A DNA stretch of 64,000 nt from Nannocystis sp. SCPEA4 (GCF_026626685.1 NZ_JAPNJX010000001.1:332752-396751), one strand, 5' to 3'. Shown: positions 9,928 through 63,209, numbered from the stretch's first letter. Made by a program: numbers and translations. Notes: generated by a model from the sequence alone, not told the origin.

Positions 9928-10045
9928 ACAGTGTCTCTTCGGACATGTCGATCGACCCGTCTCCCGGTGTCGATGTCCATGCCCCGAAATCAAGTGTCCC
10001 TTCGGACAGCTCCATCGACCTGTCCCTCAGGTCGCTTCGCGCAAG
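9928..10045. repeat. convergent-intergenic element with two ~30-bp direct repeats (CAGTGTCTCTTCGGACATGTCGATCGACC / CAAGTGTCCCTTCGGACAGCTCCATCGACC) and a central GTGTCGATGTCCATGCC unit
   Basis: Seen directly between the FAD-oxidoreductase stop (9909) and the rarA stop (10058). Confidence 0.55.
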
Positions 10046-25319: not shown

Positions 25320-25883
25320 TTAGGACGGGTACTTGGCGTTGTAGCGCTTGACGAGCTCGGTCGTGATGTCGAGTCCGGGCTCGACGAACAGCACGGTCGA
25401 GTCGTCGCGGATCAGCACCAGGTCGACGTTCTTCTCGGCGGCCAGCTTGTCGATGATCGTCTGGCAGTTCTTGTAGATGTCCTCGAGGACACGCGACTCC
25501 TGCTGCGTGAGCTCCTGCTGCATGGTCATGTAGATCTGCTGCATCTCCATGTACTCCTTCTGCAGCGCCTCCTCCGCGGCGGCGAGCTTCTCGCCTTGCA
25601 GGCTCTTCAGCTTGCCGGTGTCGGCCTCGAGCTTCTTGCGCTTCTGCTCGAGCTTCTCCTGCTTGGCCTTGGAGCTGTCCTCGAGCTTCTTGCGCGCGGC
25701 CTGGCCCTGCTTGGTGTCGGCGAGGACCTTTTGCATGTCGACGACGGCGACGCCGCGGACCTGCGGAATGGTGGCCTGAGCGGGCGTGACGAAGTTGGGG
25801 GCGAGGCCGGCGCCGCCCGCGAAGGCGAGCGCGACGGCGGCGGCGGAGAGCAGACGACCGAGACGACGCTGGGGGGTGGGCAT
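25320..25883 (-). CDS. skp: OmpH/Skp-family periplasmic chaperone
   Basis: Signal peptide, then a coiled-coil segment rich in K, E and Q, as in OmpH. Start taken at the ATG with an AAGGA RBS (MPTPQRRLG...); the ORF begins at 25910. Confidence 0.7.
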   Translation of the reverse strand: MPTPQRRLGRLLSAAAVALAFAGGAGLAPNFVTPAQATIPQVRGVAVVDMQKVLADTKQGQAARKKLEDSSKAKQEKLEQKRKKLEADTGKLKSLQGEKLAAAEEALQKEYMEMQQIYMTMQQELTQQESRVLEDIYKNCQTIIDKLAAEKNVDLVLIRDDSTVLFVEPGLDITTELVKRYNAKYPS

Positions 25884-31993: not shown

Positions 31994-34041
31994 CGCTCCG
32001 CCTGCCGGAGGGCGTCGACCGGGCGCATGCGCGAGGCGATCCGCGCCGGGTAGAGGCTCGACAGCCAGACGATGACGAGCGACGACACGCCGACCAGGAC
32101 GACCTCGAACCCGTCGATGAAGACGGGCAGCTGCTCGAAGCTCTGCAGCGTGCCGCCGAGCGGCAGGCCGAAACGGTCGAGGAGGCCGCACAGGCCGATG
32201 CCGGTGACGATGCCGAGGATCCCGCCGAGGATCCCGAGGCACAGGCCCTCGGAGATGAAGATCCGCTGGATGAGCGCGTCGGTGCAGCCCATCGTCTTGA
32301 GGATCGCTATCTCCTTCGACTTCTCGAGCACGCTCATGAGGTTGGAGCCGAGGATCCCGAACGAGGCGACCAGGATCACGCACAGCAGCGCGACGAACAC
32401 GGCGATCTTCTCGAGCGCCATCGCCGAGAACAGGCTGCGGTTCAGCTCCTGCCAGTCCTGGACGATGAGGTCGCTGCGCCCTGCGGCGTCGACCGCGTCC
32501 TGAACCGCCTGCTTGCGCACGTCGAGCTGCTCGATGTCGTCGACCTTGACCTCGAGGCCGGTGACGCGGTCGCCGGCGCGCAGGAACGCCTGGGCGACCG
32601 GCAGCGAGGCGTACACGAGCCAGCGGTCGTAGTCGTAGTGGTCGGCGTCGAACACCCCGGCGACGCGCACGGCCATGACGCCGGGGATCCGGCCGGCCGG
32701 AGTCATGCGCCCGATCGGGGTGATCAGCTGGACCTGATCGCCGGTGCGGGCAGCCAGCTCCTTGGCCTTCTCGCTGCCGATCAAGAGGCCGTCGACCAGC
32801 GCGCGGCTCGACCCCGGTTCCTCGGTGTCGACGTCGACCGCGGGCTCCGGCGGCGGCGGCGGCGTCGCCTCGCTCGGCTTCGGCGGCGGCAACTTGCCGG
32901 ACGCGCGCAGCTTGCCGATCTCGACCTCCGGGTCCTCCCAGCCCTCGTCCTCGTCGCCGCTGGCGACCACGCCGAACGGGCTGCGCGGGATGGTCGGGAT
33001 CGCGGTGGCCGGCGAGGTCGGGACGGCGGGCGGCTTGTCCTCGATCACCGGCTTGGCCGCCGGGATCACGCCCTTCTTTCGCAGCGCCGGGATCTCGACC
33101 TCGGGGTCCTCCCAGCCGCCGTCGGGGTCGTCGTCGACGGCCTGGCTCGGGATGTCCTCGGGGACATGGTCTTCAGAACCTGTCGGAAGAGGCAGGCCCG
33201 TGGCGCCGCCGCCCTTGTCGTCGGGGGCCGCGTCCGGCTCGTCGCTCTTCGGCGGCTCGACCGGCGTGATGTCGAAGCCGAACTCCGACTCGGGGATCCG
33301 CTCGGGGTGCGAGAGGAACTCGTAGTCGCCCTCGCGCATGATGTCGGGCAGGTTCGACACGCTGCGGTGCAGCTCGGGGTCGATGCCGAGGAGGATCCCG
33401 CCCTGGCGCTGGAAGCCGCTGCGGACCATCACCTCGCCCTGCAGGTAGGGGCTGGCGCCGAGGATCCCGGGTTTGTCGGCGATCGCGTGGGCGAGGTCGC
33501 GGTAGTCGGCGAACGGGCGCCCGTCGGCCGCGCTGACGCGGATGTGCGCGCGCTGGCCGAGGATCTTGTCGCGCAGCTCGAGCTCGAGGCCGGTCATCAG
33601 GCTGAGCACGACGACCAGCGCCATGCAGCCGAGCATGACGCTGACGGTGATGACGGTGGCCAGCAGCGTGAACACCAGCGACAGCACGGCGCCGAGCAGC
33701 AGGCCCGCGCCGAGCAACAGGGTGATCGCGCCGAGGACCCCGAAGTACGCCTGCGCCGGCGGCGGCAGGTGCAACGTCGGGTCGAAGCCGAGACCGACGA
33801 GGCTCGAGTCGAGCGCGACGCGCTCGGGCAGGCTCGGATCGACCGGCGCGAAGCCGTAGAGGGCGTACAGCACGAAGCCGCCGCCGACGATCAGGAGATA
33901 GACGGCGAGGCCGACGGCCGGCCAGGCCCAGCTCGGCGGGCGATCGCCGGCCCGCAGGTGCCGCCACGCGATCTGCCAGTGGAGGCTCGGGGGAGCCTCC
34001 GCCCTGGGCGGCGCGGCGGGGCGGGCGGCGTTGCGACTCAC
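31990..34041 (-). CDS. lolC: LolC/LolE-family lipoprotein-release permease with an expanded periplasmic insert
   Basis: HWQIAWRHLRAG N-terminus and a C-terminal FtsX domain. The insert carries (D/E)GGWEDPEVEI..L(R/K)..G.IP motifs twice. The GTG start at 34041 overlaps the prfB stop. Confidence 0.8.
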   Translation of the reverse strand: MSRNAARPAAPPRAEAPPSLHWQIAWRHLRAGDRPPSWAWPAVGLAVYLLIVGGGFVLYALYGFAPVDPSLPERVALDSSLVGLGFDPTLHLPPPAQAYFGVLGAITLLLGAGLLLGAVLSLVFTLLATVITVSVMLGCMALVVVLSLMTGLELELRDKILGQRAHIRVSAADGRPFADYRDLAHAIADKPGILGASPYLQGEVMVRSGFQRQGGILLGIDPELHRSVSNLPDIMREGDYEFLSHPERIPESEFGFDITPVEPPKSDEPDAAPDDKGGGATGLPLPTGSEDHVPEDIPSQAVDDDPDGGWEDPEVEIPALRKKGVIPAAKPVIEDKPPAVPTSPATAIPTIPRSPFGVVASGDEDEGWEDPEVEIGKLRASGKLPPPKPSEATPPPPPEPAVDVDTEEPGSSRALVDGLLIGSEKAKELAARTGDQVQLITPIGRMTPAGRIPGVMAVRVAGVFDADHYDYDRWLVYASLPVAQAFLRAGDRVTGLEVKVDDIEQLDVRKQAVQDAVDAAGRSDLIVQDWQELNRSLFSAMALEKIAVFVALLCVILVASFGILGSNLMSVLEKSKEIAILKTMGCTDALIQRIFISEGLCLGILGGILGIVTGIGLCGLLDRFGLPLGGTLQSFEQLPVFIDGFEVVLVGVSSLVIVWLSSLYPARIASRMRPVDALRQAER

Positions 34042-42846: not shown

Positions 42847-43875
42847 TCACGACGGGGTGACAGGGGCGGCGGCCGCGGCATGGATCATTTTCTCCGGGCG
42901 CCACAGCGGCCCGTCGAGACGAACCACGACCAGCGCGTCGCGGAACCACAGAGCTTGCCTCGCCGCCCGGTCTTGACCCTCGGCCAGGGTCGGCGCGACC
43001 TCCGGCAGCGCAGCGGCGTCGACGCCACGGCCGTGTAGGAGGCCCCGGAACGCGTCGGCCTCGGCCTCGTCGAGGCGGCGCACCGGAAACGGCAACACCT
43101 CCCCGAGGGCCAGCAAGGCCGCCTCGAGCCGGGCCCGCATGGCGTCGCGACTTTCGGCGCCCGCGAGGCCCAGGCGGTACTTGGGCGGCGCTCCGGCCAG
43201 ATCCGGCAAACGCGCGGAAACGCCCACGGGCACGGTGCGAGGATCGACGAGGCCGAGGCTTCCGCAGGCGGTGCGCCGCAACGCCGCCAGATGCGCCGGC
43301 AGCCCGACGCGCCGACCGAGCTCCTCCGCGAGGCTGCGAATATAGGTGCCCTTGCTCACGGCACACGAGGCGTCGATCGCGTCCTCGCCGACCTCGATCT
43401 CGGTCGCGGACCGCAACTCCATGGGTCGCGGCGGCAGCGCCAGGACCTCGCCGCGACGGGCGCGAGCGTGGGCCGGACGACCCTCGAGCTTGACCGCCGA
43501 GTACGCGGGCGGCGGCAGCTCGAGCGCGCCGCACATGTCCTTCAGGACATCCGCCGCCGCGACCACCTGCGCCGGCGCGACCGCGACCTCGGCGATCGTC
43601 TCGCCCTCGCGATCGGCCGTGGTCGTCGCCCGCCCGAGGCCGAAGCGCGCGCGGTAGACCTTGTCGACGGCGCTCAGGTACGGCACGAGCCGCGTCGCCC
43701 CGCCGACGCACACGACCAGCAGGCCCGAGGCGAGCGGGTCGAGGGTGCCGCAGTGGCCGACCTGCTTCTCGTTCAGGACCCAGCGGACGAAGCCGACCAC
43801 GTCGTGCGAGGTCGGCCCCTCCGGCTTGTCGACCAGCAGGACGCCGCAGCGCTCAGCCTGGGTCACCCTGGCCAC
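42847..43875 (-). CDS. truB: tRNA pseudouridine(55) synthase
   Basis: GVLLVDKPEGPTSHDVV...GHCGTLDPLASGLLVV (catalytic Asp) plus an extended C-terminal region. Confidence 0.85.
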   Translation of the reverse strand: MARVTQAERCGVLLVDKPEGPTSHDVVGFVRWVLNEKQVGHCGTLDPLASGLLVVCVGGATRLVPYLSAVDKVYRARFGLGRATTTADREGETIAEVAVAPAQVVAAADVLKDMCGALELPPPAYSAVKLEGRPAHARARRGEVLALPPRPMELRSATEIEVGEDAIDASCAVSKGTYIRSLAEELGRRVGLPAHLAALRRTACGSLGLVDPRTVPVGVSARLPDLAGAPPKYRLGLAGAESRDAMRARLEAALLALGEVLPFPVRRLDEAEADAFRGLLHGRGVDAAALPEVAPTLAEGQDRAARQALWFRDALVVVRLDGPLWRPEKMIHAAAAAPVTPS

Positions 43876-52794: not shown

Positions 52795-52845
52795 GTCCGT
52801 CGGAAGCAGGCGCGGCTGCGGCTTTCTGCGCTAGGCTGCGCCCGC

Positions 52846-53901
52846 GTGGCCACCGAACACCTCCTCACCCGCGGGCTCGACACCATCCGGATCGTCCATG
52901 ACGACTGCGACCTCGTCACCGGCGAGGGCGAGCATGCCGTCACCCAGACCTTCGACGACGTCGACGACGCCCGCTCGCACCTCGAGTACGTCCTGAAGCG
53001 GATGCGCCGCGACGGCTACGGCCTCACCTCGCGCCCGATCAGCCTCGAGGACGGCCAGCGCGACATCGCCGACGGCCTGTTCGAGTGGGACCCCGAGCGC
53101 CGCCGCCTCAAGTGCGTGTTCGTCGAGGACGACGGCGTCCGCGTCCGCTGCGAGCTGCTGCCCGACGTCGCCGAAGCGCGCGGGGCCGCCGGTCTGCACT
53201 TCGTGTGCGACCACGCGATCCCCGGCCCCGCCCTGTCGGCCGCGCTCGCCGGGCGGCCGCTGCCGCAGATCCGCAGCTTCATCTTCGACACCCCGTTCCA
53301 GACGATCACCCGCCAGTACGCCAACACCCCCGGGCGGCTCGACCTCGTCTTCCACGGCCTGCCCGCCCTCGAGTCCGCCTACGTCACCGGTGCGCCCGAG
53401 CTGCGCCGCTGCGGCCACACCCGCCTGAAGCACCTGCACCTGCTCGGCGATCCGCTGCCACCGGCCACCCTGGCCGGCCTCGGCGACAGCGACTTCCCCG
53501 CGCTCGAGCGCCTGGTGCTGTGCCTCAGCCGCGACGCCGAGCCCGCGCCGGCGGTCGACGTCGTGCGAGCGCTGCGAAGCCTGCGCGCGCCGGCGCTGCG
53601 CCACGTCTACCTGTCCGGCAGCGACGACCTCGTGGCCCTGATCGACGCGCTCTGCGATCGCCCCCTGCCCGCCTCGTGGACGGTCCTCTCGCTCGAGGGC
53701 GTCCTGCGCGACGAGGACGACCTGCTCGCCGTCCTCGAGGACCGCGCCCCCGTCCTCGGCCGGCTCCAGCGCCTCGCCCTCCCGCTCGCCGACGACCTGT
53801 CCGACGACGCCGCCGACCGCGTCCTCGCCCTCCTGCCCGCCGTCGTCGACCGCGACGAGCTGCCCGACCAGCTGCTGCCCAGCGTCTACGAGGACTGGTG
53901 A
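52846..53901 (+). CDS. hypothetical protein with C-terminal leucine-rich-repeat-like region
   Basis: GTG start. L..L.L..L-type repeats in residues 200-330. No recognisable catalytic motifs. Confidence 0.5.
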   Translation: MATEHLLTRGLDTIRIVHDDCDLVTGEGEHAVTQTFDDVDDARSHLEYVLKRMRRDGYGLTSRPISLEDGQRDIADGLFEWDPERRRLKCVFVEDDGVRVRCELLPDVAEARGAAGLHFVCDHAIPGPALSAALAGRPLPQIRSFIFDTPFQTITRQYANTPGRLDLVFHGLPALESAYVTGAPELRRCGHTRLKHLHLLGDPLPPATLAGLGDSDFPALERLVLCLSRDAEPAPAVDVVRALRSLRAPALRHVYLSGSDDLVALIDALCDRPLPASWTVLSLEGVLRDEDDLLAVLEDRAPVLGRLQRLALPLADDLSDDAADRVLALLPAVVDRDELPDQLLPSVYEDW

Positions 53902-53905
53902 TCTG

Positions 53906-53986
53906 CCTGTCCTCCAGGACATTTTCAAAAGGGCATGCCGTAACGAGCATGTCCTTTTGAGCATCGCTCTCTGAACATGTCCTGAA
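53906..53986. repeat. CATG-palindrome array (GGACATTTTC aaaaGGGCATGCC gtaacgaGCATGTCCtttt GAGCATCGC tctctGAACATGTCC) between convergent genes
   Basis: Seen directly. AAAAGG(G/A)CATG ... CATGTCCTTTT is a near-perfect inverted repeat. Confidence 0.6.
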
Positions 53987-55484: not shown

Positions 55485-56339
55485 TCAGACCGCCAGCTGG
55501 GTGCGGCTCACGGCCACTTCTTCGCGCCCGTGGGGCAGCTCGAGGCCCTCGCCGGAGAACCGCGCGATCGCCACCGTCACGTTGTCGGGCCCGCCGGCGG
55601 CGCAGGCGGCCTCGGTCAGGGCCCGGCAGCAGCGCAGCGGGTCCTCGTAGCGCAGCATCAGCCCGAGGATCTGCTCGTCGGTGACCGGCCCGGTGAGGCC
55701 GTCGCTGCACAGCAGCAGCACGTCGCCGGCGCGCAGCTGGACCACGTCGAACTCGGGCCCGACCCGCGGCTGCACGCCCAGCGCCTGCAGCAGCACGTTG
55801 CGGTGCTCGTAGTCGCGGGCCTGCTCGGGGCGCAGGCGGCCGGCCGCGATCAGCTGCCCGACCACGCTGTGGTCGGTCGTGACCTGCGTCAGCGAGCGGC
55901 CGCGGCGGATGTACGCCCGCGAGTCGCCCACATGTCCGATCAGCAATTCTGGCCCAAAGGCCAGGGCCGCCGTCAGCGTCGTGCCCATCCCGTGGCGGGC
56001 CGGATCTTCGACCGCGGCCGCGCGGATCTTGTCGTTGACCGCCGTGATCGCCTCGTGCATCACGTCCTGGGCCATGGCCGTGCTGGCGAACGGCGCCTTG
56101 GCGTGGACCACCGCCGACAGCACGTCGACCGCGATCCCCGAGGCCACGTCGCCGGCCGCCGCGCCGCCCATCCCGTCGCACACCGCGATCAGCGTCCCGC
56201 GCGACGTCAGCTGCTGCACGCGCTGGTGCGGCAGCAGCCCGCGCTCCCCCGTCTGAAGGTTTTGGACCACGAAGTGGTCCTCGTTGCGCTTGCGGACGCA
56301 ACCGACCTCGGTCCTCGCGAACACCTCGAGCTGCGCCAC
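55485..56339 (-). CDS. PP2C-family Ser/Thr protein phosphatase
   Basis: GCVRKRNEDHF, CDGMGGAAAGDVAS, GDSRAY, CSDGL and GGPDNVTV are the PPM signature motifs. Confidence 0.85.
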   Translation of the reverse strand: MAQLEVFARTEVGCVRKRNEDHFVVQNLQTGERGLLPHQRVQQLTSRGTLIAVCDGMGGAAAGDVASGIAVDVLSAVVHAKAPFASTAMAQDVMHEAITAVNDKIRAAAVEDPARHGMGTTLTAALAFGPELLIGHVGDSRAYIRRGRSLTQVTTDHSVVGQLIAAGRLRPEQARDYEHRNVLLQALGVQPRVGPEFDVVQLRAGDVLLLCSDGLTGPVTDEQILGLMLRYEDPLRCCRALTEAACAAGGPDNVTVAIARFSGEGLELPHGREEVAVSRTQLAV

Positions 56340-56340
56340 C

Positions 56341-57696
56341 TCAGTGCATCCTCACGCGGAAGATCTGGTCCCCGACCCGGAACATGTCGCCCGGTTGAAG
56401 GATGACATCCCCGCGGATCCTGAGGTAGGTCCCGTTGGCCGAGCGGAGGTCGGTGAGGAGGACGGTCATCGCGTCTCCGCGCAGCTCCATCGCCAACTGC
56501 GCGTGTTGCCAGCTGACGAAGGGGTCGGTCGGGAAGATGATGTCGCCGAGTTCGCGGCCGAACACGATCTGCGGCGCGCGCAGGCAGTGGACCTCGGCTT
56601 CGGCTCCGCCGACCCCGATCAGCGTCAGGCGGCCCCACGCCGGCTGCATCGGCGTGCCGAACAGGCGCGTCGCCTCGCCGTCGAGCTCCTGCTCGCGTCC
56701 GCCCGGCGGCAGGTTCTCCAGCCGCAGCAAATGGTGACCCACGAGGAAGAGATCGCCCGGAAACACCGGTTCCGGCCGCGAGATCCGGACGTAGACCCCG
56801 TTGCGCGATCCCAGATCGCCCAGGCGGACCCCGCCGCCGGGCGCCGGCTCGAGGCGGGCGTGGGCCGGACTGAGGAACTCGTCGCTCGGGAACATCAGGT
56901 CGCCCTGCTTGCGGCCCACCACCAGCGTCCCGCGCAGCGCCACCGACTCGCCCTCCGAGCCGTCGCGCTTCACCAGCACGATCCGCAGCGGCGCCGTCCC
57001 GGCCGAGCGCCGCGACGACTCGACTGCCAACCTCGCCATCGGCGCCGACCACGACGGCCCGCCCGGCGAGCCCGTCACCGACACCTGCGCCTGCTCCGAC
57101 GGCAGGGCCGCCTGACCCATCCGCGCCGTGTCGCCGGGCCCTGGTCCCTCGCGCGGCACCGGCACGTCGTCGGCCGGCGGTCGCAGCCCGACCACGCGGG
57201 CCACCCCCCACGAGCCCTGGCCCACTTCGGCGCTGGCCTCCGCGTTGCCGGCGTGGCCGCCGCTGTCGGCGGCGAGGAGCGGGGGCTCGGCCTCGCTGGC
57301 GTTCGGGACAGGTGCGGCCGGCGGCGCCGGGCTCGCCGGCGGGACGATCCCGGCCTCGGGCGCCGGGGTCGGTTCACTCGCGGAAGAACGCGGCGCCGGA
57401 TCGGGTACGGGGGGTCGTGCCGGCTCCACCTCGCCCGTGCCCTCGAGCAATCGTCGCGGGATCAACTTCATGCTCTGGGTGCTCGGGCGCGGCAGCCGGG
57501 AGTGCACGCGCAGGCCGCAGATCTGGCAGAACTCGAAGCCGTCACCGAGCGGCTGCCCGCAGCGCGCGCACTTCGGGAGCGCGCTCACTGGCGCCGGTTG
57601 CGACAAACGATAACCGCAGATCTCGCACGCAGCAGCCTCTGGGGCGTGTTCGGTGCCACAGGCGGGACAGGGGATCCACTCCGTCATCGGCCTCAT
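56341..57696 (-). CDS. double zinc-ribbon plus two-FHA-domain protein
   Basis: CPACG...CEICG and CARCG...CQICG zinc ribbons at the N-terminus, a Pro-rich linker, then two FHA domains (GRKQGDLMFPSDEFLSPAHARL..., GRELGDIIFPTDPFVSWQHAQL...). It abuts the PP2C gene. Confidence 0.8.
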   Translation of the reverse strand: MRPMTEWIPCPACGTEHAPEAAACEICGYRLSQPAPVSALPKCARCGQPLGDGFEFCQICGLRVHSRLPRPSTQSMKLIPRRLLEGTGEVEPARPPVPDPAPRSSASEPTPAPEAGIVPPASPAPPAAPVPNASEAEPPLLAADSGGHAGNAEASAEVGQGSWGVARVVGLRPPADDVPVPREGPGPGDTARMGQAALPSEQAQVSVTGSPGGPSWSAPMARLAVESSRRSAGTAPLRIVLVKRDGSEGESVALRGTLVVGRKQGDLMFPSDEFLSPAHARLEPAPGGGVRLGDLGSRNGVYVRISRPEPVFPGDLFLVGHHLLRLENLPPGGREQELDGEATRLFGTPMQPAWGRLTLIGVGGAEAEVHCLRAPQIVFGRELGDIIFPTDPFVSWQHAQLAMELRGDAMTVLLTDLRSANGTYLRIRGDVILQPGDMFRVGDQIFRVRMH

Positions 57697-57869
57697 GCCT
57701 GGAGAAGGCTTGCCAGGGTCGCGCGCGTGGGATAGACCCGCGCTCGCCCGCGATTCGCCCCGTCAGGGTACCCGTCCGGCTCGGACCGCGTCAATTGAGC
57801 GTCGCCATTGCACAGTCAGGCTCGTCGCCGCCGCCCTCCGCGCCCGAGCAATCCGGGTCTGCCGGGCCC

Positions 57870-59384
57870 ATGGGCCCCGCGTGGCCGTCGCACGTGCGCG
57901 ATCCGTCGGGGGTGAACGCCTCGCCCATCCGGCCCGACCGCGACGGACCTCAGTGGCTGCTCCGCCCCGACTCGTCCTCACGGACCTCACGGAGCTCACG
58001 GAGTAGTGGCGCCGGATCGCCTCCCTCGCCCGCGCGGCGGCTCGCGCGAGCCGTCTTCGCCGCCGTCGCCGCGCTGTGTCTGCCCACGCTCGTGGCCTGC
58101 GCCCCGATCGTGCGTCCGCCTGCCTTCGTGGGCGCGCGCGACCTCGTCACCGACGCCTCGCTGCTCGGCCCCTTCGACGGTCAGGTCGTCGACGCCGCCA
58201 CCAGCGAGCCGATCGCCGAGGCCACCGTCGTCGCCGTCTGGTCGTACGACCGCGGCGACGGCTTCATCGGCCCGTGGGGCGCGGAAACGTCCAGCGTCAC
58301 CACCGACGCCGCCGGCCGCTACCGGATCCCTCCGGCCAGGCTCAGCGTGCGCGGCTCGACCGCGCGGCTCGTCGACGCCTACCTCATCGTCTACAAGCGC
58401 GGCTACGCCGGCTACCGCTCCGACGCCGTCCCCACCGGCGGCCCCCGCTCCGACTTCACCGTGCGACACAACCGCGTCGAGCTGCGCAAGTGGCAGAACA
58501 GCGACTCGCACGCCGATCATCTGTTGTTCCTGGCGCCGCCGCGGCCGCTGCACAAGGCTGTGCGCTGGGAGGCCGACCTCGCCAACCTCGACCTGTTCCG
58601 CGCTCTCGGCGGCGCCGGCGGTCCAGTCGTCGCGGTCGAAGAGGAGGAGGGCGGCAAGCCGGCCGGGCCGGTGGTCGCCGAGGTGCTCGACGCCACCGCC
58701 CTGCTCACCCCCGACGAGGTCCGCCAGCGCACCGGCTACACCGAGGCCTTCGAGGTCAAGGACCTCACCGACCTCAAGCGCACCGGCTTCTACCACGGTG
58801 TCCACCTGCAGGCGGTCCACAGCGACGAGCGCCACGACCTCGCCTTGCGGGTGTGGAGCGCCCCGCCCGGCGGCATGGACCCGGTCGCGGCGACGATCCA
58901 GGAGACCTTCGGCAAGGTCAAGCCGGCCGGCGACATCACCCCCGAGACGTGGAGCACCACCGCCGACGGCGTGCACGCGATCGGCTTCGTCGACCGCGAG
59001 CAGAAGATCGGCGTGCTGCTGACCTGCGGCGACCAGCAGTGCCACGACCTCGACAGCGCGCTGATCCTCGCCAAGCACGTCTACCGCAACCTCGACCGCC
59101 TCAAGCAGGTACCCGACCCGGCCGCGACCGCGCCCGCCGCGACCACGCCGGCCGGGACCACGCCGGCCCCCTCGGGTGTCCCGGGCGGCGCCGTCCCGGG
59201 CAAGTCCGCCGCCCCGAGCGGCAGCGGCGGCGCGACCAACCCCGCCGGCGTCGCCAGTCCCAAGGGACAGGGCAATTCGACCATGTCCCCAGAGTCAGGT
59301 CCAACCACCAGTCCCAAGGACCAGGGCGCTTCGACCATGTCCCCAGAGTCAGGCCAGCCGGCCGGGAAGGGCCGGCGCCCGTGA
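57870..59384 (+). CDS. lipoprotein with carboxypeptidase-regulatory-like beta domain and a C-terminal SPKGQ/SPKDQ repeat tail
   Basis: Lipobox AALCLPTLVAC preceded by RRLARAV. Domain GQVVDAATSEPIAEATVVAVWSYDRGDG. Tail ...ASPKGQGNSTMSPESGPTTSPKDQGASTMSPESGQ. The start is uncertain: ATG at 57870 gives an unusually long leader. Confidence 0.5.
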   Translation: MGPAWPSHVRDPSGVNASPIRPDRDGPQWLLRPDSSSRTSRSSRSSGAGSPPSPARRLARAVFAAVAALCLPTLVACAPIVRPPAFVGARDLVTDASLLGPFDGQVVDAATSEPIAEATVVAVWSYDRGDGFIGPWGAETSSVTTDAAGRYRIPPARLSVRGSTARLVDAYLIVYKRGYAGYRSDAVPTGGPRSDFTVRHNRVELRKWQNSDSHADHLLFLAPPRPLHKAVRWEADLANLDLFRALGGAGGPVVAVEEEEGGKPAGPVVAEVLDATALLTPDEVRQRTGYTEAFEVKDLTDLKRTGFYHGVHLQAVHSDERHDLALRVWSAPPGGMDPVAATIQETFGKVKPAGDITPETWSTTADGVHAIGFVDREQKIGVLLTCGDQQCHDLDSALILAKHVYRNLDRLKQVPDPAATAPAATTPAGTTPAPSGVPGGAVPGKSAAPSGSGGATNPAGVASPKGQGNSTMSPESGPTTSPKDQGASTMSPESGQPAGKGRRP

Positions 59385-61513
59385 CCCGCCCGCGCTCGTG
59401 GCTCCGCCGGGTCGGCCGCGCCCTCGGCCTCGGACTCGCCCTCTCCCTCGCGCTCCCGGCCGCGCCGGCGGGCGCGTGGGACGCCCGCGCCACCCACCTC
59501 GGCATGGTCGACCGCGCCCTGCTGGAGAGCGCGCTGCACCTGCGCTGGATGGCCCAGAGCGAACTCCAGCGCGGCCTCTTCACCCCCCTGCGCGTCGATC
59601 CCAGGCGGCTCAGCGCCCCCGAGCGGCGCATGCTCACCGCCGCCCTGCAGCACGGCGGCCTCCAGGCGCTCGGCGGCCCCGGCTCCTGCCCCGGCCTCGG
59701 CGCCCCGATCGAGACCCAGAAGTACTGCGTCGAAGGCGACGTGTGGGAGCTGCCGGCGCTGCAGTGGCTGCAGGTCGGCGTGCTCGCCGAGCTGGTGCCC
59801 TCGGCCCGCGCCGTCCACCACTTCGTCGACCGCGACGACCCGCTCGCGCCGAACTTCGCCGACCCGCAGCCGCGCCCCGGCCTGGTGCGCCTGCGCCAGG
59901 TCCGCCACAACGGCGGCTCGGCCGCAGCCCTGGCCACGCAGACAGGTTTCTCGGGACAGGGCCCTTCGGTCATCTCGTTCCTGCGCGACGACACCGATCC
60001 GCTGGCCCCGCCGCACATGTGGCGCCACCTCGAGCTCGCCTCCACCCTGCCCGAGGCGGACGCGCGGGCGCACCACCTCGCGCTGGCGCTGGTCGGCCTC
60101 GGCGCCCTGCTGCACGTCGTCCAGGACCTCGCCGTCCCCGCCCACGCGCGCGGCGACGTCACCGGCTTCTTCAGCCCGCTGTCGCCGAGCCCCGGCGATC
60201 GCGGCCTGCCGTTTGCGGAACTGGCGCGTCTGGCGTTCGGTCGCAGCGCCCTGCCCGGCCGCCCCGCCCAGGACGAGGTCGCCCGCGCCCGCGGGATCCC
60301 GGTCGCCGGCTCGCTGGCCGAGCACCTGTTCGGCGGCGCCCCGGCCAGCAAGGACCCTGGCGCATTGGTCATGCCCGAAGGGACAGGTTACGAGGGCCTG
60401 GCGGTGTTCACCGCGCGCCGGTTCCTGTCCGAGGCCAGCGTCCCCGCGCCGCGCCACCTCGACGACGACCTCACGCCCGAGGCCGCCGCCGCCGAGCTGC
60501 TGCAGGCCAGCCGCCTCGACCCGGTCGAGCTCCAGGGCGCCCGCATGCACCCGTGGCCGGCCGCGCGCGGCTACATCCAGAGCGGCACCGGCCGCCCGCT
60601 GGCCGCCTTCGACACCGACGACGACGGCCGCGTCCGCCCGTACATCGACGAGGCCGTCTACCGCGAGCAGTTCGTCCACCTGGCGCCCCGCGCGGTCGAG
60701 GTCACGCGCTCGCTGCTCGACTGGCTGTGGCCGACCTGGCCCGAGCTCACCTTCGACGCCACCGGCGGCAACCTCGACTTCGTGGTCCCGCCCGGCCTCG
60801 TCGACGCCGTCGTCCTCGTGCTGCGCCAGGACGCCGCCGGCGCGCGCACGATCGTCCGCAAGGTCACCCTTCGCCCCGGCGAGCGCAACCGCGTCTCCGG
60901 GATCCCCACCGGCCTCGGCGAAGGCGAGCGCGCCGTCGTCGTCCTCCGCGCCCGCCGGCCCAGCGGCGAGCCGCTCCTGCTCGAGCACGTGCTCGGCAGC
61001 GAGAGCAAGGTCTTCCCCGTCGTCCCCGCGCCCTACGTCGCGCCCGAGCCCGAGCTCGCCGCGCCCGAGACGGCCGAGGAACCCGCGCCCGAGCCCGAGC
61101 CGGAGCCCGAGCCCGAGCCCGAGCCCGAGCTGGCGCCGCCGACCAGTCCCAAGGGACAGCCCGCCAAGCCCCAGCAAGGCCAGGGCAAGACCAGGGGTCA
61201 GCCCGTCGAGCCCGTCACCAGTCCCAAGGGACAGCCCGCCGCCACCAGTCCCAAGGGACAGCCAGGCAAGCCCCAGCAAGGCCAGCCCGCGGCCGGCACC
61301 ACTCCCGCGACCAGTCCCAAGGGACAACCCGCTGCCAAGCCCCAGCAGGGCCCATCCACGACCAGTCCCAAGGGACAGCCCGGCGATGCGACCCCCGCCC
61401 CGGGTCCCAAGGGACAGCCCGCCGCCAAGCCCCAGCAGGGCCAGCCCCCTGCCGGCACGAACCCCGTCAGCAGTCCCAAGGGACCGCCCCCGAGCGGCAA
61501 GAACCGCGGCTGA
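59381..61513 (+). CDS. large secreted protein with a possible zinc-dependent PLC/P1-nuclease-like N-terminal domain and a tail of at least seven TSPKGQP(A)AKPQQGQ repeats
   Basis: Signal peptide ...LALPAAPAGA then W-D-A-R-A-T-H (the Trp1/His pattern of the S1-P1 nuclease/PLC fold), with further H..D motifs (HHFVDRDD, HVVQDLAVPAHARGD). An EPEP-rich linker is followed by repeated DNA units CCAGTCCCAAGGGACAGCC. The GTG start overlaps the upstream stop. Confidence 0.55.
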   Translation: MTRPRSWLRRVGRALGLGLALSLALPAAPAGAWDARATHLGMVDRALLESALHLRWMAQSELQRGLFTPLRVDPRRLSAPERRMLTAALQHGGLQALGGPGSCPGLGAPIETQKYCVEGDVWELPALQWLQVGVLAELVPSARAVHHFVDRDDPLAPNFADPQPRPGLVRLRQVRHNGGSAAALATQTGFSGQGPSVISFLRDDTDPLAPPHMWRHLELASTLPEADARAHHLALALVGLGALLHVVQDLAVPAHARGDVTGFFSPLSPSPGDRGLPFAELARLAFGRSALPGRPAQDEVARARGIPVAGSLAEHLFGGAPASKDPGALVMPEGTGYEGLAVFTARRFLSEASVPAPRHLDDDLTPEAAAAELLQASRLDPVELQGARMHPWPAARGYIQSGTGRPLAAFDTDDDGRVRPYIDEAVYREQFVHLAPRAVEVTRSLLDWLWPTWPELTFDATGGNLDFVVPPGLVDAVVLVLRQDAAGARTIVRKVTLRPGERNRVSGIPTGLGEGERAVVVLRARRPSGEPLLLEHVLGSESKVFPVVPAPYVAPEPELAAPETAEEPAPEPEPEPEPEPEPELAPPTSPKGQPAKPQQGQGKTRGQPVEPVTSPKGQPAATSPKGQPGKPQQGQPAAGTTPATSPKGQPAAKPQQGPSTTSPKGQPGDATPAPGPKGQPAAKPQQGQPPAGTNPVSSPKGPPPSGKNRG
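61141..61500 (+). repeat. coding tandem repeats (SPKGQP units; DNA core CCAGTCCCAAGGGACAGCC, at least 8 copies)
   Basis: Direct reading. The same unit appears twice at the 3' end of the preceding gene (59255-59345). Confidence 0.7.
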
Positions 61514-61529
61514 GCATCGGGACCCGAGG

Positions 61530-61730
61530 GTCCCTCCGCTCGTCCGCCACCTGTCCCCCGAGCGAGCAGCCCGGAGCTGAACGGCCCCGACAGCCTCACC
61601 CGTTGCCGCGACCTGTCCCCGAGGTCGCCGGCCGGAGCCGAACGTCGCGACCCTCCTCGCTCGTCCCGCCACCTGTCGCGAGCGACTGTCCCGCCGACCC
61701 CAGCTACCTGTCCCCGAAGACAGCCTGTCC
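61530..61730. repeat. non-coding degenerate direct repeats (five copies of an ACCTGTCCCCGAG-like core; two ~57-bp units share CGGAGC(T/C)GAACG)
   Basis: Copies are CCACCTGTCCCCCGAG (61538), CGACCTGTCCCCGAGG (61599), CCACCTGTCGCGAGCG (61659), CTACCTGTCCCCGAAG (61694) and CAGCCTGTCCTCTCG (61711). Confidence 0.55.
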
Positions 61731-61814
61731 TCTCGCCCCCTTGCTCACGGTCGCGCCAGCGGCCCGCCCACTGGTAGCTTCCGCCCGGCGCGACGCCCGG
61801 CCGACCTCGCGCTG

Positions 61815-63209
61815 GTGACAGCCGCCACCCCGCGCGGACCGTCCACATCAGCCCGCCGGCGGTCCGCGTCAGGCGTCCAGGCGGCTGTGCTACACCTCCA
61901 CGCCGTGTCGACCGAGCGTGATGACGACGGCCTGATGTTGCCGCCCCAGGACGAGCGTCGCACCCTGCTCGACCAGCTCGTCGCGCTCGTCAAGGCGCGC
62001 GGTCCGGCGCCGCTGCTCGTCGCGCCGCTGCTCGAGCCGAACCCGCGCTTCTTCCCCGATCGCTGGCAGGCCGGCGACGGCAGCCTGCGCCGGCTCGTGC
62101 GGCGCCTGCTCGGCTACGCCGGCCTGGGTCAGCTGCGCGTCGAGGTCGCCATCTACGACGCCGACCCGGCGCGACGCGGCGAGGTCCTCGGCAAGCCCAG
62201 CTCCACGCGCGGCCAGGACCTCGTCGTCTGGCTCGCCGGCATCGAGCGCGACCTCGTCAAGATCGGCGCCGAGGGTTCGGCCATGGTCGACCCGCACACC
62301 ATCGTCGCCGCCGCCGCCCGCGTGGTCGCCCACGTCTACCGCCGACACTTCGGCCTCACCACCGGCGACGCCTTCGATCCGCGCATCGACCTCACCGGCG
62401 TCTACCTCGGCTTCGGCGTCCTCACGGCCGACGCCGCCCTGCGCTACACCGTCCGCACCGCCGCCGGCCCGATGCAGACCCGGCGCACCCCCTCGCGGCT
62501 CGGCGTCCTCTCGCCGCAGTCGCTGTGCTTTCTCCTGGCCGCGCAGCTGCACGCGCGCGCCCTCCCGCGGGCCGAGCGGCAGCGGATCGGCAAGCTCCTC
62601 CAGGCCAACCAGGCCGCCTTTCTGCGCCACGCCTACGCCGCCCTCGACCGCGCCGAGCCGCCGGTCGCCCAGCAGCTCGGCGTCCCGCCGCAGGAGCAGT
62701 GGCCACCCGCGCTCGACCTCGCCGCGCTCACCGTCCCGTTCACCGACGACCCCGATGCTGTCCCCGAGGCCAGGCGCGACGAGGACCCCGGCATCGCCGG
62801 CATCAACGCCGGCAAGCCCGTGTTCCGCGTCGAGCGCAGCATGGCCGCGCGCCTCGGTCGCACCCTCGGCATGGGCGCGCTCATGCTCGGCGGCGTGGTA
62901 GCCGGCATGAAGGGCGGCCTCCAGCTCGACGCCGGCACGATCCCCATGATCGCCCTCGGCCTCGGCGTCACTGGCCTCGTCCTCGGCCGCTTCCTCCGCG
63001 AGTCGCGCTGCTCCGAGCCGCGCTGCGGCGCCCCGCTGGCCCCCGGCGACCGCGTCTGCCCGCGCTGCCGCGGCGAGGTCGTCGGCGTCATCCACCACCC
63101 GCGCGAGCGCCTCGCCGCCGAGGAGGCCTGGCGCCGCGCCCACCCCGAGGCCGGCGAGCCCGACCCATCCGAGTCGACCCCGGCCGCCGCCGCGCCGCCT
63201 GTCTCTTGA
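61815..63209 (+). CDS. hypothetical protein with two C-terminal transmembrane helices and a CxxC...CxxC zinc ribbon
   Basis: GTG start. Transmembrane helices GMGALMLGGVVAGM and IPMIALGLGVTGLVLGRFL, then CSEPRCG...CPRCRG. Confidence 0.5.
   Translation: MTAATPRGPSTSARRRSASGVQAAVLHLHAVSTERDDDGLMLPPQDERRTLLDQLVALVKARGPAPLLVAPLLEPNPRFFPDRWQAGDGSLRRLVRRLLGYAGLGQLRVEVAIYDADPARRGEVLGKPSSTRGQDLVVWLAGIERDLVKIGAEGSAMVDPHTIVAAAARVVAHVYRRHFGLTTGDAFDPRIDLTGVYLGFGVLTADAALRYTVRTAAGPMQTRRTPSRLGVLSPQSLCFLLAAQLHARALPRAERQRIGKLLQANQAAFLRHAYAALDRAEPPVAQQLGVPPQEQWPPALDLAALTVPFTDDPDAVPEARRDEDPGIAGINAGKPVFRVERSMAARLGRTLGMGALMLGGVVAGMKGGLQLDAGTIPMIALGLGVTGLVLGRFLRESRCSEPRCGAPLAPGDRVCPRCRGEVVGVIHHPRERLAAEEAWRRAHPEAGEPDPSESTPAAAAPPVS

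Follow-up and report, generated by a model that had tools for sequence, protein, structure and literature searches.

The SPKGQP tail of a secreted Nannocystis protein as the probable translation of a tandem palindromic DNA array

Two described systems come closest to the locus analysed here. Rickettsia palindromic elements (RPEs), reportedly described by Ogata and co-workers in 2000, are said to be single in-frame insertions of about 100-150 bp in genes, which are translated and tolerated on the protein surface. Repetitive extragenic palindromic sequences (REPs) lie mostly 3' of open reading frames (ORFs) or between convergent genes, and a minority is found in frame in unrelated genes (Di Nocera, De Gregorio & Rocco 2013, PMC3733652). 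These intragenic REPs are tagged by GTAG or CGTC, often sit at termini or in flexible regions and, when clustered, encode 43-82 residues; some of them have been equated with Rickettsia palindromic elements, and myxobacteria are not mentioned (PMC3733652). The present analysis concerns a stretch of 64,000 nucleotides from Nannocystis sp. SCPEA4 (NZ_JAPNJX010000001.1:332752-396751), called the window throughout, in which two adjacent genes, the lipoprotein-like gene 1 and gene 2 for a secreted protein, both end in repeats of the SPKGQP type. The SPKGQP tail is probably the translated product of a tandem array of a short palindromic DNA element that is common in Nannocystaceae, and not a sorting signal.

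The gene 2 tail (Table 1) contains seven units of the pattern (S/G)PKG(Q/P), of which those at 61145, 61220, 61247, 61313 and 61364 read SPKGQP, the one at 61403 GPKGQP and the last, at 61472, SPKGPP; (A)(A/G)KPQQG comes next after four of the seven. All are written with AGTCCCAAGGGACAG-like DNA, in the reading frame xxC AGT CCC AAG GGA CAG. Each unit of the gene 1 tail is composed of AGTCCCAAGG(G)AC(C)AG, which encodes SPKGQ or SPKDQ, followed by ATGTCCCCAGAGTCAGG (MSPESG), and the gene 1 frame closes at 59384 with VASPKGQGNSTMSPESGPTTSPKDQGASTMSPESGQPAGKGRRP and its stop. The motif AGTCCCAAGGGACAGCC with up to three mismatches has 8 matches against 0.16 expected, a number reached in 0 of 100 shuffles, GGGACAG occurs 21 times (11.2 expected) and GTCCC-N0-8-GGGAC 9 times (1.6 expected). 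The window has a base composition of 71% G+C, and 17 of its 32 GGGACA matches lie inside 57305-62759. The last 126 residues of gene 2 (P32 G20 Q18 A14 K13 T11 S9) contain no hydrophobic stretch, and residues 565-710 have an AlphaFold2 predicted local distance difference test score (pLDDT) of 36-43 and no secondary structure; the tail is thus predicted to be disordered. A previous sequence-only reading of this DNA had noted the two units at the end of gene 1, the GTGA overlap and at least seven units in gene 2, the palindrome and GGGACAG within the unit, and the missing C-terminal transmembrane segment, all of which hold. It had also proposed that a DNA-level element stands behind the repeat and that tandem copy number varies, and both ideas are supported by the observations below; its interpretation as a whole is partly supported.

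The palindrome belongs to a larger family. The DNA surveyed, about 200 kb from Nannocystaceae, contains TGTCC-N0-8-GGACA 36 times (1.05 expected); this census is not one of whole genomes, draws in large part on DNA orthologous to the present locus and is complemented by a metagenome listing. Within the window, the tail excluded, TGTCC-N0-10-GGACA occurs 6 times against 0.59 expected. The spacer is 4 nt nearly throughout and the extended arms follow A[CG][CA]TGTCC and GGACA[GT][GC]T, so that the 14-bp core TGTCC-N4-GGACA with arms of up to 8 bp (ACCTGTCC / GGACAGGT) reaches 18-20 bp overall, at the lower edge of the 20-40 bp of REPs. About 18 of the 29 copies outside the tails have no coding frame through them, and several are located 7-21 nt past stop codons or between convergent genes. 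Perfect TGTCC-N4-GGACA copies are found 3' of gene 2 in three related loci (L001, L013 and L023), at a position that matches that of the copies at 61550-61729 in the window, and copies also occur in the unrelated loci L037 and L092. The tetranucleotides GTAG/CTAC flank 2 of 27 copies and CGTC/GACG 8 of 27, neither at a fixed position. A LexA box was considered, as CTGTC-N6-GACAG fits the Escherichia coli pattern CTGT-N8-ACAG, and was dropped, the true family having a 4-nt spacer and a frequency of about one copy per 7 kb. The literature searched yielded no relevant account of TGTCC/GGACA palindromes, of REPs in myxobacteria or of such elements in Nannocystis; the role of the family may be that of a terminator, a binding site or a mobile element.

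The preferred explanation starts from genomes in which many copies of a REP-like palindrome of 14-20 bp, A[C/G][C/A]TGTCC-N4-GGACA[G/T][G/C]T, would be scattered mainly through non-coding DNA just 3' of genes. Such copies would arise at the ends and junctions of genes and go on to multiply in head-to-tail order, with slippage or unequal exchange between hairpin-forming units as the probable mechanism. Those in frame would be translated into a low-complexity peptide set by the reading frame alone: CTG TCC NNN GGG ACA would give LSxGT, xCT GTC CNN NNG GAC AGx would give (P/A)VPxD(S/R) and xxC TGT CCN NNN GGA CAG would give CPxGQ. The Nannocystis unit ACC AGT CCC AAG GGA CAG would represent the third frame, with TGT changed to AGT and hence Cys to Ser. 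The resulting disordered extension of 126 residues, rich in Pro, Gly, Gln and Lys, would be tolerated on a secreted enzyme resembling zinc phospholipase C, translationally coupled to an upstream lipoprotein with two copies; it would serve as a flexible spacer at most and probably lacks any specific function.

Codon usage provides one line of evidence. None of the 171 Ser codons in the body of gene 2 is AGT, a codon nevertheless used in almost every SPKGQ, and GGA makes up 2.3% of the Gly codons in the body compared to about 95% in the motif. Both codons would be present because the unit derives from the Cys frame (CPxGQ), in which a change of TGT to AGT probably removed the repeated Cys. Units in which Ser is replaced by Gly are written GGT, and GTCCC is retained in them; the unit cAGTCC-CAAG-GGACAg differs from CTGTCC-N4-GGACAG by a single mismatch. 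The G+C content at third codon positions (GC3) of gene 2 is 0.9-1.0 until about 61100 and about 0.78 in the tail.

Orthologues provide the second line of evidence. The 17-mer CCAGTCCCAAGGGACAG, scanned for in one genome per species, forms clusters at a single locus per genome in six members of Nannocystis (RBIL2, exedens, bainbridge, pusilla, radixulma and punicea), and the exact 17-mer is found nowhere else in these six; identity to the window is about 97% in N. radixulma. Nannocystis species share both tails, that of gene 1 being kept in 5 other genomes, and the number of gene 2 units ranges from 3 to 7, with one 9-residue unit fewer in P0001, from a strain 96% identical to the window. Units common to the two tails occur within Nannocystis only. 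Beyond the genus the gene 2 tails are still Pro-rich and are made of different units (PVPKDSKP, ASKPAEP, KPAAT), or are acidic. The tail in L103 (P0028) consists of seven copies of ACA CCT GTC CCC AAG GAC AGC, which are read as TPVPKDS and hold the perfect palindrome CTGTCC-CCAA-GGACAG with the rare codon CCT. The tail in L105 (P0032) uses CCT GTC CCC GAG GAC AGC (PVPEDS), a 16-mer identical to intergenic copies 3' of gene 2 in L023, and the unit AAG TCC CCG AAG ACA GG of L104 is close to the intergenic CTGTCCCCGAAGACAG of the window. Because the sister orthologues carry the palindrome in another frame, it is the DNA element that the clades share, not the peptide.

Three further observations concern these tails. 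A different protein in Nannocystis metagenome-assembled genomes (MAGs; L078:1142, L022, L074) has a single TSPKGQV just past its signal peptide, written with the same 17-mer. The annotated tail of P0005 (N. pusilla, on a contig of 12.2 Mb), HQSQGTASRRG..., corresponds to the +1 frame of the tail DNA and is probably an assembly frameshift, given that the second N. pusilla assembly (L023) reads in frame. Co-variation between the gene 1 and gene 2 tails from clade to clade was considered as well and rejected, as the gene 1 tails of L103 and L101 read TPTG and GPSGQ and their gene 2 tails PVPKDS and SPKGQ.

The third line of evidence comes from unrelated proteins. A metagenome scan for two CTGTCC-N4-GGACAG within 8-38 nt of each other uncovered at least 120 loci with palindrome arrays. 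Among the matches listed, contigs with a G+C fraction of at least 0.62 comprise 110 clusters; 48 of them are coding-like, that is, every spacing is a multiple of 3 and flank GC3 is at least 0.85, and 27 are spaced at distances not divisible by 3. The coding arrays among these listed matches use the (P/A)VPxD(S/R) frame in 28 cases, LSxGT in 17 and CPxGQ in only 3, all weak. Their hosts include MoeA, a MafB19/TadA-like deaminase, an HlyD-family protein, Ser/Thr kinases, a kinase-WD40 protein and a TPR protein, of which MoeA, the deaminase and kinases are cytoplasmic; in these hosts the arrays occupy linkers and tails, outside the Pfam domains. A series of gain and amplification is visible in MoeA: in orthologues of 83-92% identity the stretch from the conserved LFDGP to the stop, at a junction where the downstream gene overlaps, holds 0, 1, 2 or 7 units, and the nearest named relatives of these orthologues are Nannocystis MoeA proteins.

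Two side observations touch on these arrays and on the 17-mer. In L228:1870-1896 one palindrome, ACCTGTCC-CGGA-GGACATGT, spans the MoeA gene junction and supplies the ATG start of the overlapping next gene. A dispersed and structured repeat of Caulobacter and Caulobacterales MAGs, about 90 nt long (TTGGGACTG..CCTGTCCCC-loop-GGGGACAGGctatCCAGTCCCAAGGGACAGGaaagCCTGTCCCC), likewise has the 17-mer CCAGTCCCAAGGGACAG as its core and is found in L002, L005, L006, L008, L010-L012, L016, L018-L020 and about 45 more loci, with dozens of copies in one MAG. The arm of this repeat is identical in sequence to the arm of the Nannocystaceae palindrome, and a search of ten of the Caulobacter loci against Rfam retrieved no family.

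Several points weigh against the preferred explanation. Across five Nannocystis species, 24/28 and 26/28 copies retain the third bases that form the palindrome, compared to 8/63 of the other A/T third positions (Fisher p ~1e-11, the copies being non-independent), and selection inside the ORF may act on the palindrome itself, as DNA or as RNA. In L101, L102 and L107, of about 70% identity, SPKGQ or GPKGQ is retained while AGT has become AGC and GGA has become GGC, a count biased by the choice of units by their peptide pattern; this suggests some constraint on the SPKGQ peptide, so that the tail is perhaps more than a by-product. The loci examined showed neither a transposase nor a terminal tag nor a target duplication, a genome-wide search for transposases was not made, and mobility is unproven. 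Most metagenomic contigs with arrays have no taxonomic placement, and one (L148) is placed near Nannocystis. The share of orthologous DNA in the census counts on the same side.

The first of these points leads to the alternative that survives best, namely that palindromes inside ORFs are functional cis-elements, hairpins or binding sites acting for instance as terminators, attenuators, 3'-end stabilisers or sites for a dedicated protein, the tail peptide being the price paid for an array of them at the operon's end. It is conceivable, if doubtful. Apart from the third bases, it draws on the gene 2 body, where seven A/T third-base columns are conserved in 7/7 genomes, all of them in two sites (A and B in Table 1) that hold GGGACAGG and in which rare codons (ACA GGT, GGA, CCT, GAA) cluster. 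The site B segment is missing from the sister-clade orthologue in L103 and looks like an old palindrome insertion. In the active-site region, the stretch encoding HVLQDM in the sister-clade orthologues L103:4735, L105:3256 and L106:3274 is written CAT GTC CTT CAG GAC ATG, a perfect 18-nt palindrome with the rare codons CAT and CTT; its counterpart in the window is CAC GTC GTC CAG GAC CTC. The RNA of the tail folds better than shuffled sequences (z -2.9), intergenic copies directly follow stop codons, one of them with a T run, and the crowding of GGGACA around the gene pair is likewise in line with this alternative. Against it, the palindrome decays while the peptide persists in L101, L102 and L107, and the stems are short (5-8 bp). 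A promoter and terminator consensus scan of 57000-62500 gave no match, Rfam contains no family for 57000-62200, and the region downstream of gene 2 (61510-61815) folds no better than shuffles on either strand (z -0.8), with no sign of structured RNA. Units that are young and repeatedly re-amplified would look conserved even without selection; such units and selection on the palindrome both fit the data and cannot be told apart. A bolder version, in which a protein recognises the palindrome as a DNA site or RNA hairpin kept by selection inside dual-coding ORFs in otherwise scarcely used codons, and in which a single module for regulation or RNA processing is made up of the tail array, the half-sites A and B and the cluster downstream, seems unlikely to us. 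If it were true, the arm shared with the dispersed Caulobacter repeat would hint at a common machinery.

Selection on the peptide, with the palindrome as an incidental feature, is a still weaker candidate. The tail would then be a stalk, a matrix- or polymer-binding segment, or the new secretion or attachment tag, common to both proteins, that the sequence-only reading had put forward. SPKGQ is indeed present on both adjacent proteins, conservation of the two tails extends across the genus, synonymous changes in L101 and L107 leave the peptide intact, and a conserved basic G-K/R-x-R/K-G closes the gene 2 tail. The acidic PE block of gene 2 followed by a basic, KP-rich block is reminiscent of the proline-rich TonB spacer. 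GKGRRP, the basic end of gene 1, coincides with the gene 2 start codon and ribosome-binding site, and is accounted for by the constraint that these impose. Sister-clade orthologues encode other peptides from the palindrome or have tails without it, similar tails are carried by cytoplasmic enzymes (MoeA and the TadA-like deaminase), and selection on the peptide does not account for the codon anomalies. The tag lacks support because the exact DNA motif is confined to a single locus per Nannocystis genome; recurrence of the tail on many exported proteins was not found with the 17-mer, and copies in other codons may still exist. A tail-only search of 5.8 billion proteins gave 2054 word-sharing candidates, none at E <= 0.01, and is uninformative for so low-complexity a query. 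The tail may still act passively, as a stalk or flexible spacer, with SPKGQ kept through synonymous drift in more distant relatives. Ordinary local slippage of an arbitrary short unit, its likeness to other palindromes being due to chance, is very improbable: low-complexity Pro-rich tails are common in Myxococcota, every gene 2 orthologue has some such tail and the ASKPAEP repeat of L106 contains no palindrome, but the palindrome family is enriched about 30-fold, orthologous loci have identical 16-mers in their coding tails and in their intergenic DNA, the independent arrays number at least 120, and the rare codons sit exactly at the palindrome arms.

The protein that carries the array has a recognisable fold. 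Its body has the all-helical domain of the zinc-dependent phospholipase C / S1-P1 nuclease superfamily, and H39, H53, D73, H146/H147, D150, H245, D249 and H255, candidate zinc ligands, are invariant or almost so. Compared to zinc-dependent phospholipase C / alpha-toxin and to S1-P1 nucleases, the gene 2 domain has about double the length, contains large insertions and lacks a sequence-level match: no Pfam family, including Zn_dep_PLPC and S1-P1_nuclease, is retrieved with the body at E <= 0.1, and no PDB sequence at E <= 1. All named proteins among the 134 homologues (Nannocystis, Nannocystaceae, Myxococcales) are labelled hypothetical. Gene 2 and about 130 of these relatives can be assigned to the zinc phospholipase C / P1 nuclease fold, with putative metal binding and substrate. 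The signal-peptide cleavage site is a prediction from the sequence; A32 and W33, the residues on its two sides, are invariant in the alignment of gene 2 homologues (A2).

The gene pair with its 4-nt overlap, in which the stop of gene 1 and the GTG start of gene 2 share the GTGA at 59381-59384, is conserved in Nannocystaceae contigs. The start codon of gene 1 is uncertain, as a start at 57870 would leave 73 residues ahead of the lipobox LVAC at 58089, and the match of gene 1 to CarboxypepD_reg is weak (E 5.5e-6, under the Pfam cut-off). L001 and L023 have 2-3 additional copies of the gene 1 tail unit (58-63 nt) between the two genes, with a duplicated gene 2 start; at L001:3496-3790 and L023:5360-5710 the intervening DNA contains tandem duplications, 90-95 nt in length, that combine the gene 1 tail unit with the first gene 2 codons. 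Gene 2 of strain RBIL2 is annotated (P0004, 770 aa) with about 67 extra residues ahead of the signal peptide, and its true start is probably the internal one. Synteny is conserved in L101-L106, where genes for an NAD-dependent epimerase, a PP2C phosphatase and an FHA/double zinc-ribbon protein lie on the opposite strand to gene 1 and gene 2; in the window the FHA/zinc-ribbon neighbourhood occupies 55485-57696 on the minus strand, divergent from the pair. The lipoprotein and its phospholipase C-like partner may therefore have a conserved signalling neighbourhood. The minus-strand FHA gene itself contains ACCTGTCCC at 57305-57313, a single half-palindrome in the PVP frame (CCT GTC CCG) within a disordered linker.

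Table 1. Window coordinates of the gene pair, its tails and the palindromes in and around it.
Feature	Position	Strand	Description
Palindrome	9995..10008		TGTCCCTTCGGACA; between convergent genes
Palindrome	25478..25491		TGTCCTCGAGGACA; within minus-strand ORF (RVLEDIY)
Palindrome	33153..33166		TGTCCTCGGGGACA; within minus-strand ORF (HVPEDIP)
Palindrome	43536..43549		TGTCCTTCAGGACA; within minus-strand ORF (DVLKDMC)
Palindrome	53908..53921		TGTCCTCCAGGACA; TTTT next; 7 nt after stop of 52795-53901 ORF
Gene 1	57870..59384	+	lipoprotein-like; from ORF and GC3 frame
Gene 1 tail	59253..59360	+	two 54-nt units
Gene 2	59381..61513	+	secreted protein, 710 aa; from translation
Signal peptide, gene 2	59381..59476	+	from sequence; predicted cleavage after AGA, Trp33 first mature residue
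Folded body, gene 2	59477..61021	+	helical domain (zinc phospholipase C / S1-P1 nuclease fold), then C-terminal beta-sandwich
Site A	59936..59968	+	CAGACAGGTTTCTCGGGACAGGGCCCT; two direct GACAGG half-sites in rare codons; identical in 9/9 Nannocystis-clade taxa
Site B	60374..60392	+	CCCGAAGGGACAGGTTACG; degenerate palindrome ATGCCC-GAAG-GGACAG; identical in 9 taxa
Acidic Pro-Glu linker	61039..61137	+	PEPEPE..., CCCGAG hexamer repeat
SPKGQP array	61141..61500	+	seven copies of [A/G]GTCC-CAAG-GGAC[A/C]
Region 3' of gene 2	61514..61814		CCTGTC(CCC) x5 (61550, 61612, 61672, 61707, 61724); CTGTCCCCGAAGACAG at 61708-61723; GGGACCCGAGGGTCCC at 61519-61534

If a translated palindrome array is the correct explanation, one 16-bp element gives rise to LSxGT, PVPxDS and SPKGQ repeats, according to frame, in the linkers and tails of many unrelated Nannocystaceae proteins. 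The low-complexity tails of large myxobacterial genomes should then be checked at the DNA level before they are called sorting signals or adhesion modules, and palindrome arrays would be a concrete source from which gene ends and operon junctions rapidly come to differ in length and copy number.

Compared to known systems, the gene 2 tail shares with MYXO-CTERM, PEP-CTERM, LPXTG and GlyGly-CTERM signals its C-terminal position on a secreted protein and differs from them in having no hydrophobic helix. In contrast to the C-terminal domain (CTD) of the type IX secretion system (T9SS), the end of gene 2 is not a folded beta-sandwich, its pLDDT lying below 50. The Nannocystaceae palindrome resembles REPs and bacterial interspersed mosaic elements (BIMEs) with their REP-associated tyrosine transposases (RAYTs) in that it is an over-represented and, in the DNA surveyed, dispersed and mostly extragenic palindrome at gene 3' ends that probably forms hairpins, and it differs from them in the absence of the defining terminal tetranucleotide. 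Like intragenic REPs, it is found mainly 3' of ORFs or between convergent genes, with a minority of copies in frame in unrelated gene families, and as in intragenic REPs and RPEs these copies are absent from close orthologues, as seen in the MoeA series, at site B and in the tails of the different clades. It shares with RPEs that it is in frame and translated, and departs from them in forming tandem arrays of 16-mers in another lineage of other base composition. What sets it apart from intragenic REPs, finally, is its shorter core of 14-16 bp, the lack of a GTAG or CGTC tag and its occurrence in long coding arrays, arranged head to tail, whose periods are 21-54 nt.

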